The notes beneath the pieces are model-generated. The model was not told where the DNA came from and did not search any database. It saw only the letters and a program-made list of their open reading frames with translations. The position numbers and the translations under genes were made by a program. A stretch of 16,322 nt of DNA from Promethearchaeota archaeon. GTDB taxonomy: Archaea; Asgardarchaeota; Lokiarchaeia; Sigyniarchaeales; SOKP01. Below are positions 4,474 through 8,055 of this stretch, one piece after another. Within the stretch, counting starts at the first letter, position 1, and the number at the start of each line of letters is the position of its first letter. The DNA lies in NCBI GenBank assembly GCA_048938895.1, contig JBHLLU010000036.1:24792-41113 (forward strand), in the 5' to 3' direction.

Positions 4474-4935
4474 TTAATCCCTAAAAACAGTTCTAATGCG
4501 ATCTTCTAATTTTATTCTTAGATCTCCAAGAATTTCATCCACTTGGGGCTTAAATTTCTTAAAGAATTTTGATCCTTTAGTGAAGATGTCTTTAAGATCA
4601 TATTTTTTAAGAAAAAGAGAATAAATCTTCTTGAGGTGTTGAAGTACAAATTCATGGTCTGTTTTTTTTTCAATTATTGCAAAAACTAATAAAGGCTGAA
4701 GAATCTCTTCCTTATCTTTTGAAGTTTGAACCATTTCATAATAACAAATAATTTCAAAATTAGAAAGAGATATAACGTATATCTCATCCCCAAATACTTC
4801 ATTAATGTAATCTTCAAGCCCACTAAGAAATCGATTCCGTATGTTAGGATCCAATATTTTATCTGCTGACGAATAATACTTGATTTCAAGAAGTTTTTTA
4901 AGCCCTAAATTTATCCCGATTTCTAAAACGGCCAT
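4474..4935 (-). CDS. Probable longin-like domain protein (Asgard eukaryotic-signature type)
   Basis: The pattern fits a longin fold: two N-terminal strands, helix DPNIRNRFLSGLEDYINEVFG, strands ending LLVFAII, helix LKKIYSLFLKKY and a final F..FKPQVDEIL helix. This is pattern recognition only. Confidence 0.6.
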   Translation of the reverse strand: MAVLEIGINLGLKKLLEIKYYSSADKILDPNIRNRFLSGLEDYINEVFGDEIYVISLSNFEIICYYEMVQTSKDKEEILQPLLVFAIIEKKTDHEFVLQHLKKIYSLFLKKYDLKDIFTKGSKFFKKFKPQVDEILGDLRIKLEDRIRTVFRD

Positions 4936-4950
4936 TTTTCTTTACCAACG

Positions 4951-5682
4951 TTAGTTTGAATTATAGAAGGGAAGGGTGCTAAGTTTCTTATGGATTTCAT
5001 TAAATGGATGTAAAATCATCTTTTGTGCAAGAGTTAATACATCTTCAGTTCCAGAATAGATATCATACCATTTTATAGCCTTTCCATAAACTTTTTTTAA
5101 CATTGATTTCCTATTTAAGAATGCATCTTTAGCAATCTCCTTGGAAATCTCTGAGGTTGATTCTTTGAGGACTTTTTCTATTGCTGTTTTTAATTTCATT
5201 TTGGGTTTTTCTTGAATTTTTTTAACCACTTTGTTCATATAATCTTGATACTCGCTTAAATAATCCAGAATACTCTCCGCCGATTTAACAACTTTTTGAG
5301 CATCAATTTTACCTACATCAAAACTTTGAAAAGTTTCTTCAATTTTTTCTTTAGCTCTTCTCACAAGATCATCTTTGATTTCCTTAATGAGAACTTCTAC
5401 TGAACCTAAACCAGATACAATATCATTAGCCTTCTGTTTTAAATTTAAAAGTAGTTCTTTATCTAATTCTATTGGTGAAGTCTGTTGGATCTCTTGAACA
5501 TCTTTAATACTCTCAACCTGTGAGTTATTAATTTCATTCAATGTGAATTCTTTATTATCAGCATTCTGTTGTTCTTGTTCTTTACATGATGGACAAGTCC
5601 CACTATACATATGTACTTCACCAATAAAAGTCTCAGTATTATATACCTTTTTACATGTTTCACAATGTACAAATTTTACCAT
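4951..5682 (-). CDS. Hypothetical protein: N-terminal Zn-ribbon plus helical/coiled-coil region
   Basis: CETC...CPSC, then a Q/N/E-rich linker, then a K/E-rich amphipathic helical region. It ends 15 nt before the longin-like gene. Confidence 0.8.
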   Translation of the reverse strand: MVKFVHCETCKKVYNTETFIGEVHMYSGTCPSCKEQEQQNADNKEFTLNEINNSQVESIKDVQEIQQTSPIELDKELLLNLKQKANDIVSGLGSVEVLIKEIKDDLVRRAKEKIEETFQSFDVGKIDAQKVVKSAESILDYLSEYQDYMNKVVKKIQEKPKMKLKTAIEKVLKESTSEISKEIAKDAFLNRKSMLKKVYGKAIKWYDIYSGTEDVLTLAQKMILHPFNEIHKKLSTLPFYNSN

Positions 5683-5880: not shown

Positions 5881-6840
5881 TTATCTTTTCTTTTTCTGAT
5901 ATCTCATCTGTTTCCTGTTTTGAAACGCACCTCTTCTCTCCATTTCTTTCAAGGTATACCTTTCGAGTACATATCGTGATACGGGTAATATTGATTCAGC
6001 ATTATTTAGATATTCCTGTAGTTTTCTCGGCAATTCCCTTACAATATTTTGTACTACTTCTTTAGGATCAATTGAAATACGATATTTATAAAAACCCTTA
6101 TTTAAATTTGTAATATCAGTAAGTAAATACCTAACCGCTTTATCAATTCTTATTCGTTCAGGTGTATCAATGAAAGTTTTATAATTGTATAAGACTGACT
6201 GAGAAACATCCATTGTAACTAAACCATTCTCATTTATCATAAGATTGTCATTACTATAATCTCCGTGTATCATTTGAGCGTCTAGAAATACACGGGCTAT
6301 AATGTCAATAGCCTCGTAGAGAATATTTTCAGGATCGTCGATCTCACTAATATTCACATCACTAAGTAAGGGTGCTGGTATTAGAGAATCTTCCTCAATA
6401 TTAATAAATTCCATCATCATGATATTTTTTAATAAATATCTTGGTTTAGGAACGGGTACGCTTGCTTTATGGAGTTCATATAAATTCCAATACTCTTGTT
6501 TTGCCGCAATAGACGCCATTGCTTCTTTTGAAATATGATGAGTACCCTGTAGACGTTTTTTTATAGTACTGGTGAAATATCTAAAAACTTTAGCACAAAC
6601 TAATTCGTTTGTCTCCTTTTCTTGAGCTAGAAGAACTGTTGCTTCCTTTCCTGCACCAATAACAGAAAAAACCTTTTTAATTTTTCCTGTGGCAAGGAGT
6701 TGATCTGTGGCTTCTTTAACAGTTATTTCTCTTAATGGAACTCTGTAGTCCTCTCTTTGTTCATTTAAAAAGTGTCTACTTTTCGAAACTTTTATCCCAT
6801 ACTTTTGATCAAATTTTTTATTTGTCATTTCTAACCTCAT
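5881..6840 (-). CDS. rio1: RIO-family (RIO1-like) atypical Ser/Thr kinase/ATPase
   Basis: P-loop GAGKEATV, CAKVFR lysine, VPVPKP, MMMEFI hinge, HGDYSNDN catalytic loop and MDVSQ metal loop. No RIO2-type N-terminal wHTH is apparent. The true start is probably ATG 6828, which has GAGGT at 6838-6834. Confidence 0.92.
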   Translation of the reverse strand: MRLEMTNKKFDQKYGIKVSKSRHFLNEQREDYRVPLREITVKEATDQLLATGKIKKVFSVIGAGKEATVLLAQEKETNELVCAKVFRYFTSTIKKRLQGTHHISKEAMASIAAKQEYWNLYELHKASVPVPKPRYLLKNIMMMEFINIEEDSLIPAPLLSDVNISEIDDPENILYEAIDIIARVFLDAQMIHGDYSNDNLMINENGLVTMDVSQSVLYNYKTFIDTPERIRIDKAVRYLLTDITNLNKGFYKYRISIDPKEVVQNIVRELPRKLQEYLNNAESILPVSRYVLERYTLKEMERRGAFQNRKQMRYQKKKR

Positions 6841-6862
6841 TTCTGTTTATGAATTTTTTATT

Positions 6863-7060
6863 GGTGAAACGCACTTCACCCTTATTATTTATCACAATTT
6901 ATGCTGTAAATCCAAATATCTCTAAAATTCTAAATTGAATTTGACTTGGATTTACGAATTATGACTTTACCTAAAATCCTTTCAGGAACTAAAACAGACG
7001 TATAAGTAGTGTTATTAATGGTAAAACATACCTATTGAGGTCTGTTCTTTTTTCCTAAAA
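6863..7060 (-). promoter_or_regulatory. Structured RNA leader (three stem-loops) upstream of the RIO kinase
   Basis: Nested helices 7060-7052/6988-6980, 7047-7040/6999-6992 and 7036-7029/7023-7017. A 10-bp perfect stem 6955-6946/6915-6906 has an inner 6-bp stem. A 6-bp hairpin lies at 6880-6863. Several imperfect pairs are G-U only on the minus strand. Confidence 0.6.
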
Positions 7061-7089
7061 TCCGATGCTTTATACATATTTTCATCCAT
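7015..7089 (-). CDS. Putative 24-aa leader peptide / small protein MDENMYKASDFRKKEQTSIGMFYH
   Basis: ATG 7089 to TAA 7015. Shine-Dalgarno GAGGTGA at 7104-7098 with an 8-nt spacer. TATA-like boxes at 7143-7137 and 7118-7111. Too short for the ORF track. Confidence 0.55.
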   Translation of the reverse strand: MDENMYKASDFRKKEQTSIGMFYH

Positions 7090-7216
7090 TCGAACAATCA
7101 CCTCACTATGTTTTTATACAATCAATGATTCTGGAGTTATAAATATTATCCTCCTCTGGATGAATTAAGGTTTCGCATTTCTTTATCCACACAAGTTATA
7201 AAACAATAAAAAAAAG

Positions 7217-7222
7217 TTTAAA
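7217..7222 (+). promoter_or_regulatory. Putative TATA box for a leaderless nitroreductase transcript
   Basis: An A-tract (BRE-like) followed by TTTAAA, centred about 26 nt upstream of ATG 7246, which has no SD. Confidence 0.5.
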
Positions 7223-7245
7223 TCGTTTAAAACGTCTTAAATTTT

Positions 7246-8055
7246 ATGTCTATTGTTGGAGTTAATCAGGAATTATGTTCTCAGTGTAAAAAATGCATAA
7301 CAGATTGTACAAGAGGTCTCTTTAGGGAAGACTCTTCTGCGAAGATACTTCGTATTGCTGATCCCTTTAATACCTGCAATTTTTGTGGTAAATGTGTTGC
7401 AATTTGCTCTGAAAATGCTATAATATGGGAGGGGGATTGGGAAGATGATGTGGAATCTTATCCAGGTGTAAAAAATTATGAGGAAAATGTTTCCTATGAA
7501 AATTTAATGCAACTTTTAAAAGCAAAAAGATCAGTTCGACAATATAAAAAGAAACCAATCCCTCGAGAGGTCCTTAAGAAAGTTTTTGAAGCCATGCGTT
7601 ATGCTTCAAGTGCAGATAACCGTAGAGCATGGAAATTTGCAGTGGTGTCGGATCCTGCGCTAATTAAAAAATTAAGTCAAGAATCGATAAAAATTGTTTA
7701 TCAGTATATTGGATTTCCCTCAGCAGATGCTGCATTGAAGTATTTTGAATCAATTGATAAGGATCCCATTTTTCATAAAGCCCCAACTGTAATTTTTCTG
7801 GCCACGGGTCCAACAGGTTCGATGCCTCTGGTTGATTCTGGAATTATCCTTACATACGGTCAGCTTGCTGCCCATACACTTGGTTTAGTAACTTGCTGGA
7901 TTGGAATGGCTCATGGACTTGGGATGAATAAAGAAGCGATGGAAATTATTGGATTAGAAGGACAAATTCATGGGGTTTTAACGATTGGGTATCCTGCAGT
8001 TAGATATATACGAACTCCTCCTCGAGCACCTTTAGATGTAGTAGGATTAGAATAA
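7246..8055 (+). CDS. Nitroreductase family protein with N-terminal 2x[4Fe-4S] ferredoxin domain
   Basis: CSQCKKCITDC and CNFCGKCVAIC cluster motifs. Nitroreductase motifs KRSVRQY, ASSADNRRAWKF, LAAHTLGLVTCWIG and IGYP. Confidence 0.93.
   Translation: MSIVGVNQELCSQCKKCITDCTRGLFREDSSAKILRIADPFNTCNFCGKCVAICSENAIIWEGDWEDDVESYPGVKNYEENVSYENLMQLLKAKRSVRQYKKKPIPREVLKKVFEAMRYASSADNRRAWKFAVVSDPALIKKLSQESIKIVYQYIGFPSADAALKYFESIDKDPIFHKAPTVIFLATGPTGSMPLVDSGIILTYGQLAAHTLGLVTCWIGMAHGLGMNKEAMEIIGLEGQIHGVLTIGYPAVRYIRTPPRAPLDVVGLE

Follow-up and report, generated by a model that had tools for sequence, protein, structure and literature searches.

Does the DNA upstream of a RIO-domain gene control that gene in an Asgard archaeon, and if so, how? 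The question is raised by a stretch of 16,322 nucleotides (nt) from a Promethearchaeota archaeon (contig JBHLLU010000036.1, positions 24,792 to 41,113 of the forward strand), here called the window. In the window, a gap of 405 nt separates a divergent ferredoxin-nitroreductase gene (7246-8055, plus strand) from a RIO-domain gene (6828/6840-5881, minus strand). Minus-strand positions 7146-6829 hold a TATA-like box, the Shine-Dalgarno sequence (SD) GAGGTGA, a 24-codon open reading frame (ORF) and a long hairpin. A preliminary description, made from the window alone, had taken this arrangement for an attenuator-like leader of a ribosome-maturation kinase. The present analysis points to a cis-acting, ribosome-sensing 5' leader, an RNA switch built on an upstream ORF, as the probable though by no means certain reading. 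The leader combines the small ORF with two competing helices whose arms co-vary, and it is strictly linked to the gene behind it. The features on which the argument turns are as follows.

7137-7146, minus strand: TATA-like box atatttataa, the leader promoter as read from the sequence
7098-7104, minus strand: SD1, the SD GAGGTGA of the small ORF, with a GAGGT that is the same in all 32 aligned leaders
7092-7114, minus strand: seg1, the 5' arm of helix P1 (AAAACAUA, UGAGGU, UUGUUC), covering the SD and start region of the small ORF
7015-7089, minus strand: small ORF, ATG at 7089, 24 codons plus TAA, peptide by translation MDENMYKASDFRKKEQTSIGMFYH
7037-7047, minus strand: seg2, the common anti-SD segment GAACAGACCUC, whose partner is seg1 (in P1) or seg3 (in P2)
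6980-7060, minus strand: P2, a long nested hairpin with the ORF stop codon (7017-7015) in its apical part, from RNAfold and covariation
6980-6999, minus strand: seg3, the U-rich 3' arm of P2 (GUCUGUUU at 6999-6992, UUCCUGAAA at 6988-6980), followed by GGAUUUUAGG, a U4 run
5881-6838, minus strand: Rio1-like paralog (Pfam RIO1), SD GAGGT at 6838-6834, likely ATG at 6828 (alternative ATG 6840), stop at 5881

Linkage of the leader to a Rio1-like paralog

The protein encoded behind the leader matches Pfam RIO1 (2.6e-24), and its best PDB match is Rio1 (4otp, 2.7e-24). It shares with canonical archaeal Rio1 the RIO domain, the catalytic HGDxSxxN and the metal-binding Asp columns, and its closest structural relatives, judged by sequence, are Rio1 proteins; the HGDxSxxN catalytic and D..Q metal-binding columns are invariant across 20 orthologs. 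Unlike canonical Rio1, it reaches 71 bits on the NCBIfam Rio1 model, for which the equivalog cutoff is 480, it is only 33% identical to the second and far more Rio1-like RIO gene of the same genome (contig 39, 205 bits on that model), its distribution is patchy, and it has an N-terminal motif of its own. Within the genus, 3 of 54 genomes have an ortholog (49-60% identity), and within the phylum 22 of 400 do, namely three in family f1 (the window's own genome counted), 4 of 14 in family f2 and 15 of 22 in family f16. Judged by these differences, the window gene is an accessory Rio1-like paralog rather than the housekeeping RIO of ribosome maturation that had been assumed at first. The N-terminal motif, ..HNQ.IGF..Y.K...GRE, is common to many of the paralogs and partial in the window protein (approximately 6828-6740).

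A BLAST search with the 405-nt intergenic DNA in 40 relatives matched only the AT-rich first 55 nt beside the nitroreductase gene, and orthologous leaders were therefore collected via the RIO protein. In 21 of the 22 genome loci, GAGGTG (or GGAGGT) is followed by an ORF of 21-32 codons, which shares the strand of the RIO gene and lies 174-551 nt ahead of it; the exception, L052, is an outlier at 35-40% identity. A metagenome scan contributed 16 further loci, and the arrangement is found in all 15 of those with upstream DNA. Thus, SD and small ORF are present in 36 of 37 RIO-paralog loci with upstream DNA, across three Asgard families, and these provide 32 distinct leaders. Since the flanking genes vary from one locus to another, the conserved unit is the leader together with the RIO gene.

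A pattern scan over one genome per prokaryotic species returned 20 RIO-paralog loci, 19 under Asgard-type labels and one labelled only 'uncultured archaeon', with the cultured Promethearchaeum syntrophicum MK-D1 and Ca. Lokiarchaeum ossiferum among them. The leader is also present in 20 of 20 named Asgard records, which are probably the same genomes as the 37 loci and hence not independent. In the MK-D1 record (L093), the leader spans positions 996-1095 of the locus, with the RIO gene from about 1408, and in the L. ossiferum record (L110) the leader spans 952-1050. The element is conserved, has a clear anatomy and support from covariation, and has so far turned up in Asgard-labelled genomes only; its presence in both cultured Asgard strains makes it directly testable.

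R1, a covariance model built on the part from SD to stop, gives all 32 leaders scores of 33-84 bits. On the window's own genome it finds one copy at 58 bits, the next best match having 24.6 bits (E 0.24), and on 23 canonical RIO loci it finds nothing above 20 bits. Across the 54 genomes of the genus, R1 returned the three RIO-paralog genomes, a decayed copy in genome G069 and one false match inside an ORF. In genus g49 it matched 16 of 22 genomes with one copy each; the RIO paralog is present in 15 of them, and the 16th match lies 33 nt from a contig end. In family f2 it returned three RIO-linked leaders, an orphan leader (L117), a leader ahead of a different gene (L115, see below) and three false matches inside a conserved ORF. 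The R1 matches L075, L116, L118 and L119 lie inside protein-coding ORFs and were rejected as false positives, and L019 and L028 score below 20 bits.

Two of these copies stand apart. In the decayed copy (L072, G069:C17), with the leader at about 1501-1594 and a remnant ORF at 965-1315, both on the minus strand, the helices can still be made out (75.7 bits). The kinase core of the RIO gene is gone, leaving a 116-amino-acid (aa) fusion of N- and C-terminal parts, and the ATG of the small ORF has become ATA. The orphan L117 (G035:C353, locus 1501-1600) is a second leader with 51.9 bits and two P1 mismatches, and no forward ORF of at least 60 aa lies behind it.

The leader exceeds the fourfold-degenerate sites of the RIO gene in conservation. 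Between L008 and L053, the promoter and 5' untranslated region (UTR) are identical at 0.84, compared with 0.41 further upstream; the small ORF (0.83) and the spacer (0.82) exceed the fourfold-degenerate sites of the RIO gene (0.69).

Reading frame and competing helices of the leader

The two helices share seg2. In P1, this mid-ORF segment folds back on the SD and spacer of the same ORF (the window pairs are UGAGGU with ACCUCA and UUGUUC with GAACAG). In P2, mid- and late-ORF nucleotides pair with a U-rich segment 20-80 nt past the stop codon. P1, formed by the SD and start region 7114-7092 with 7047-7037, had been missed by the preliminary description; it is the more widely conserved helix of the two and covers at least four of the five SD nucleotides in 23 of the 32 leaders. 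The arms of P1 change together between groups, as the following examples illustrate.

L009: seg1 GGUGUUUGUUU, seg2 AAACAAACACC
L034: seg1 AGGUGUAAUGUUG, seg2 CAACAUACACUU
Group D: seg1 CCCG.GGU...GGUGCAA, seg2 UUGCAC.CAAACC.CGGG
L064: P1 extended to an 18-base-pair (bp) helix, AUG included

As the register of the helices is not the same in all groups of leaders, register-free duplex tests were used. Cognate arms pair better than the arms of other groups in 13 of 13 groups for P1 and in 12 of 13 for P2, and in a double-centred (row and column) permutation over the 13 group representatives, none of 20,000 permutations reaches the observed value for either helix. Duplex energies lie at z -2 or below in 30 of 36 loci for P1 and 23 of 36 for P2, on mononucleotide shuffles, which are less strict than the dinucleotide shuffles behind the fold z-scores given below. 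For P2 in the nine group-A leaders, 86.3% of cells are paired, compared with 36-60% with slid partners; 5 of 13 pairs have changes on both sides, and 1 shuffle in 500 attains the covariation score. When all 32 leaders are placed on a single-register consensus, P1 is paired at 65.8% of cells versus 60.9% in shuffles, with 22 double-change cells versus 8.4 (0 of 500 shuffles).

The fold of the window itself is stronger than expected from its composition. Positions 7066-6978 of the minus strand fold at -24.5 kcal/mol, compared with -12.5 (standard deviation 2.7) in dinucleotide shuffles, of which 0 of 200 are as good (z -4.39). For the whole 305 nt (6841-7145), the value is -63.4 versus -48.9 (standard deviation 4.5; z -3.2, 0 of 100 as good). 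The minimum free energy (MFE) of the P1 region, 7115-7015 of the minus strand, is -19.0 (z -2.36), a value equalled or bettered by 5 of 200 shuffles, and the duplex of seg1 with the ORF interior has -16.4 kcal/mol.

Much of the structure in the preliminary description is borne out by these results. Its coordinates for the minus-strand features are all correct, and the attenuator-like core it proposed, a small ORF with mutually exclusive helices, is conserved and co-varying, with the ORF kept open by selection; the tests of conservation, covariation and folding energy that had been set beforehand were all passed. RNAfold reproduces the outer stems of the described nested stem-loop (UUUUAGGAA 7060-7052 with UUCCUGAAA 6988-6980, and GAACAGAC 7047-7040 with GUCUGUUU 6999-6992), and the inner stem comes out slightly unlike the AAUAGGUA/UACCAUU pairing given there. 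The stop codon does lie inside this stem-loop. The G-U pairs favour the minus-strand RNA as supposed: over 6966-7115, the plus strand folds at -19.3 and the minus strand at -27.5, and the hairpin is absent from the plus strand. The sequence GGATTTTAGG is present twice, at 7063-7054 and 6979-6970, and the predicted alternative pairing of the second copy (CCUGAAA-GGA-UUUUAGG) forms once P1 is enforced. The idea that the duplicated GGAUUUUAGG is the core of the switch had to be given up, as the first copy is not retained in L054; the main switch is P1 versus P2.

The small ORF keeps its frame and leaves its peptide free. Over the first 21 codons, not one of the 32 leaders has a stop in frame 0. 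Frame +1 contains 87 stops, spread over 31 leaders, and frame +2 contains 64, spread over 28; since start codons were picked by looking for an ORF after the SD, this contrast is partly due to ascertainment, yet a suitable ORF exists at the homologous place in every locus. The start codon, AUG in 30 leaders and GUG in two, follows GAGGU by 9-13 nt. Counting three further leaders described below, the ORF has 24 codons in 14 cases, 25 in seven, 21 in five, 22 in four, 27 in three, 23 in one and 32 in one. The 32-codon ORF belongs to L034 and L093 (the MK-D1 record), in which TTA replaces the TAA that stops the ORF at codon 25 in their close relative L059.

Within groups, codon positions 1, 2 and 3 are about equally rich in variable sites (50/54/57), without periodicity, and the N- and C-terminal residues vary even among near relatives. 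A recurrent centre, E/K-Q-T-P/S, coincides with a conserved nucleotide block, the anti-SD nucleotides, and this block, CAGACACC, is read in another frame in L045 and L046. The leader peptides have no repeated residue in common that could mark regulatory codons, and sequences vary between groups. Likewise, no amino-acid-level constraint of the kind expected for a nascent-peptide stalling motif is visible, and the centre tracks the RNA rather than the reading frame. The F-R-K-K codons, formerly proposed as the sensor, are not conserved, and neither they nor the peptide matter to the switch. Small-ORF nucleotide conservation is similar to RIO amino-acid conservation (0.59-0.87) and above that of RIO fourfold-degenerate sites (0.33-0.69). 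As the frame is kept while the peptide varies across codon positions, this pattern is the signature of a regulatory leader ORF, rather than of a functional micropeptide.

The same type of leader precedes a gene for a GNAT acetyltransferase by 106-118 nt in genomes G034, G086 and G100, with no RIO paralog in front. L115 (G034) and L120 (G086, one of 151 genomes sampled from the phylum) have a TATA-like box, GAGGTG, an ATG 10 nt on and an ORF of 23 or 22 codons, and their newly co-varied arms are GGUGUUAAUU/AAUUAACACC and GGUGUUAGUU/AACUAACAC. In addition, L120 has a perfect 9-bp forward partner (CUAACACUU/AAGUGUUAG) 9 nt past the stop. The GNAT gene lies 118 nt downstream in L115 (Pfam 4.4e-18) and 106 nt downstream in L120 (6.9e-21); no specific family was matched in assigning the leader-linked GNAT. 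At a third ortholog, L128 (G100), the leader stands 118 nt before the gene and scores 22 bits. The GNAT-linked copies are convincing by their combination of features, not by their individual scores. As the leader stands before two unrelated enzymes, it would be a portable cis-regulatory module and not an RNA dedicated to RIO biology. For the same reason, the translation feedback specific to RIO and ribosome biogenesis that the preliminary description had envisaged is not required. The Rio1-like paralog and the GNAT appear to be under a common control logic, which hints at a shared, possibly translation-related stress role.

The two enzyme families also meet elsewhere. In one g49 genome (L146, G141:C7, 604-3620), leader and RIO paralog are followed on the same strand by a 274-aa ORF, then, as the second gene after the paralog, by a GNAT homolog of 324 aa (31% identity with the leader-linked GNAT), and by a 385-aa ORF; the cluster may be an operon that links the two families. 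In L009, a different GNAT lies directly behind the RIO gene.

Proposed switching, readout and rival explanations

The ribosome-sensing leader would work as follows. With a promoter some 55 nt ahead of the small ORF, transcripts would begin with a 5' UTR of about 25 nt that contains a strong SD. The ORF of 21-27 codons would matter by the passage of ribosomes and not by the peptide it encodes. Once transcribed, seg2 would pair backward to the SD and start region (P1) and close the ribosome-binding site of the small ORF; by pairing forward with the U-rich segment past the stop (P2), it would reopen the SD. A ribosome on the ORF would melt both P1 and P2 and come to a halt in the apical part of P2. 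What the gene behind would respond to is the balance of P1, P2 and the state with a ribosome on the ORF; that gene is here the Rio1-like kinase/ATPase and elsewhere the GNAT. For the whole output step, two routes are conceivable: a premature transcript end after P2 and a U run, as opposed to read-through, or the release of seg3 to pair near the ribosome-binding site of the gene. That the small ORF is translated and that leader and RIO gene share a transcript is inferred, and so is the whole output step.

Structure prediction is consistent with such switching. In a transcript cut at the stop codon, the SD is paired with the ORF at a probability of at least 0.5 in 28 of 32 leaders (0.99 in the window). 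With 80 nt more, seg3 included, seg2 pairs forward in 14 leaders and backward in 18. In the full leader of the window, the P1-enforced and P2-enforced folds have -62.7 and -63.1 kcal/mol, a gap of 0.4, and 8 of 32 leaders fall within 1.6 kcal/mol. In the P1 state of the window, the small hairpin P3 forms, and GUCUGUUU pairs with AAACAGA (6848-6842) beside the RIO SD.

TATA-like hexamers peak 51-60 nt before the start of the small ORF (19 of 33 leaders, 7 of 14 groups, compared with 2-5 in adjacent bins), and a transcript start about 25-30 nt before the small ORF is therefore probable on this pattern. No peak of TATA-like hexamers at a fixed distance precedes the downstream gene. The spacers from leader to gene, variable in length (106-551 nt), are somewhat more conserved than fourfold-degenerate sites and contain no conserved ORF. 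Together with the lack of T runs of five or more in 10 of 15 short spacers, these features are indirect hints at co-transcription.

Several results weigh against this reading. At the output step, the best partner of the RIO ribosome-binding site varies by group and does not go beyond shuffles (z +1.2 to -3.3 in the 26 of 32 leaders scanned). By constrained folding, the accessibility of the RIO site in the P2 state relative to the P1 state is higher in 12 leaders, lower in seven and unchanged in 13, and a trend is found only in group A, where it is higher in the P2 state in eight of nine. A run of at least four U within 12 nt after P2 occurs in just 16 of 32 leaders and is mostly absent from group C; in group D, U5-U6 directly follows the long hairpin in four of five leaders, with only U4 in L043. 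Conserved TATA-like blocks within the spacers, ccagaatataaact in group A2 and atatttttaaat in groups D, E and H, make internal promoters possible. The helices themselves are unevenly supported: P2 is weak in groups A2, B (including MK-D1 and L. ossiferum), G, H and A3 and undetected in F1, and P1 consensus pairs with double changes are not above shuffles (5 versus 4.4, with 233 of 500 as high). RNAalifold on all 32 leaders gave no consensus helix, because the helix register differs between groups, and re-alignment with the covariance model left the counts unchanged. Finally, the GNAT-linked leaders are few and weak (37, 35 and 22 bits, with fold z-scores of only -0.6 to -2.0), and three other GNAT orthologs lack the leader.

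The spacer block atatttttaaat is located 115-130 nt before the RIO start in L043, L047-L050, L045, L046 and L064, which belong to three otherwise divergent groups. It may serve as a TATA box or else as a T5 signal for termination.

Some of these points would suit a separate transcription unit of about 130-150 nt, a small or dual-function RNA that ends at P2 and acts in trans or by transcriptional interference, with the RIO gene served by its own promoter in the spacer. Such a unit, unlikely overall but deserving serious consideration, would account for the U runs after P2 in half of the leaders and the U5-U6 runs of group D, the TATA-like spacer blocks of groups A2, D, E and H, the long variable spacers, the want of a consistent helix between the switch and the RIO ribosome-binding site, and the gene-less orphan L117. 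It sits badly with the constant position of the leader, which is always upstream on the same strand with no conserved ORF in between, and with TATA-like hexamers that show no fixed-distance peak before the downstream gene. Moreover, 10 of the 15 short spacers (groups A and C) contain no run of five or more T, the small ORF in G069 lost its start (ATG to ATA) along with the RIO core, and the service to two unrelated enzyme families is easier to reconcile with a portable cis element than with a specific RNA partner.

A second alternative takes P1 as a sensor of temperature (an RNA thermometer) or of a protein, for example in autogenous control by a RIO-type protein that recognises a mimic of its ribosomal RNA (rRNA) site. 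P1 is the most widely conserved helix and lies over most of the SD in 23 of 32 leaders, and Rio ATPases are regulated by RNA, with rRNA helix mimics among the regulators (PMC5815136). RIO autoregulation, in contrast, cannot be general, because the leader precedes the GNAT gene where no RIO paralog was found, and although neither form of sensor needs an ORF that stops at a conserved position, all 32 leaders keep the frame open. This explanation is decidedly improbable.

The idea that the small ORF encodes a functional micropeptide (a kinase partner, a substrate or a precursor like those of ribosomally synthesised and post-translationally modified peptides), with the hairpins tuning its expression, would explain the conserved SD, start, frame and length (21-27 codons in 34 of 35, one with 32) and the Q-T-P-like centre that recurs in several groups, but it was rejected as very improbable in view of the even variation over codon positions, the termini that differ even among near relatives, a centre that consists of anti-SD nucleotides and falls in another frame in L045 and L046, and the absence of conserved modification genes nearby.

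Known counterparts and further features of the locus

In bacteria, leader-peptide control is textbook knowledge, and it relies on the coupling of transcription to translation. By analogy, bacterial ribosome-dependent attenuators and translation-attenuation leaders would be the closest mechanistic kin of the ribosome-sensing leader, a comparison that fails for the regulatory codons and the stalling motif. Like the trp, his, leu and pheA attenuators, the Asgard leader has a short ORF with its own SD, a peptide without function of its own and overlapping exclusive helices (1:2, 2:3 and possibly 3:4), with the stop codon inside the switch. Unlike them, it has no run of regulatory codons for one amino acid, its first helix hides the SD of the leader ORF, and its targets are a kinase/ATPase and an acetyltransferase instead of biosynthetic operons; half of the Asgard leaders are without a clear hairpin and U-tract terminator. 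Archaeal RNA polymerase terminates differently from the bacterial enzyme.

The second kind of relative is the translation-attenuation leaders of inducible resistance genes of the ermC and cat/cmlA type. These leaders resemble the Asgard ones in that the translation state of an ORF remodels downstream pairing, that the targets are modifying enzymes and that the device is portable across genes. They differ in that the Asgard leader has neither a conserved stalling peptide nor, in the leaders scanned, a conserved helix over the downstream ribosome-binding site, and in the 106-551 nt between ORF and gene.

A further comparison concerns the hidden SD. In the leader of the phage MS2 maturation gene and in hok mRNA, a ribosome-binding site is sequestered kinetically or by fold-back. 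In these as in the Asgard leader, the SD is free until its complement (here some 60 nt on) has been transcribed, and an alternative pairing sets the time for which it is open. Here, unlike there, the hidden site belongs to a non-functional upstream ORF, and the complement lies within that ORF.

Full-text literature searches returned neither a leader-peptide switch from archaea nor any leader described for a RIO gene, which is an absence in the literature searched and not a proof. The element is thus apparently the first example of leader-peptide control in archaea. A bolder proposal, quite unlikely in its full form, would see in it the first sensor family of the leader-peptide type in archaea, a portable module that monitors the initiation and running of ribosomes on a dummy ORF. 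Perturbed translation, caused by ribosome-targeting compounds, cold or immature small subunits, would switch on the Rio1-like kinase/ATPase and the GNAT, and the element would be the Asgard counterpart of the erm/cat leaders.

Three smaller structures are predicted as well.

6970-6986, minus strand: P3, a small alternative hairpin CCUGAAA-GGA-UUUUAGG with the second GGAUUUUAGG copy, from the P1-enforced fold
6906-6955, minus strand: hairpin with a 10-bp closing stem GUAAAUCCAA/UUGGAUUUAC (6955-6946 with 6915-6906), from MFE folds
6863-6880, minus strand: hairpin GGUGAA-gugcgu-UUCACC just 5' of the RIO ribosome-binding site, from MFE folds

P3 forms in the P1-enforced full-leader folds of L008 and L053, and the second-copy motif GGAUUUUAGG is retained in L053 and L054. 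In L053 the 10-bp-stem hairpin carries one mismatch, and in L054 it cannot be recognised.

Searches with Rfam gave no match at gathering score across the window, and a tRNA scan of the window was likewise empty; on 6700-7350, Rfam returned chance-level matches only (E 0.9-8), all far under the gathering scores. Downstream, two minus-strand ORFs of 243 aa (4951-5682) and 153 aa (4474-4935) adjoin the RIO gene. They match no Pfam family at E 0.001 or below and are not found behind RIO in L009 or L010. A 67-aa ORF at 6735-6938 on the plus strand, antisense to the RIO start and spacer, is probably spurious. A scan for bacterial-type promoters and terminators found a single terminator-like site, on the plus strand at 6863-6880, where there is no plus-strand gene to end.

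The latter position is that of the hairpin before the RIO gene, in whose minus-strand form the 5' arm is SD-like and the 3' arm anti-SD-like. At the equivalent place, L055 has GGAGA/UCUCC, a change from U:A to A:U on both sides, and a similar GGUGA...UCACC occurs near the RIO start in groups D and E.

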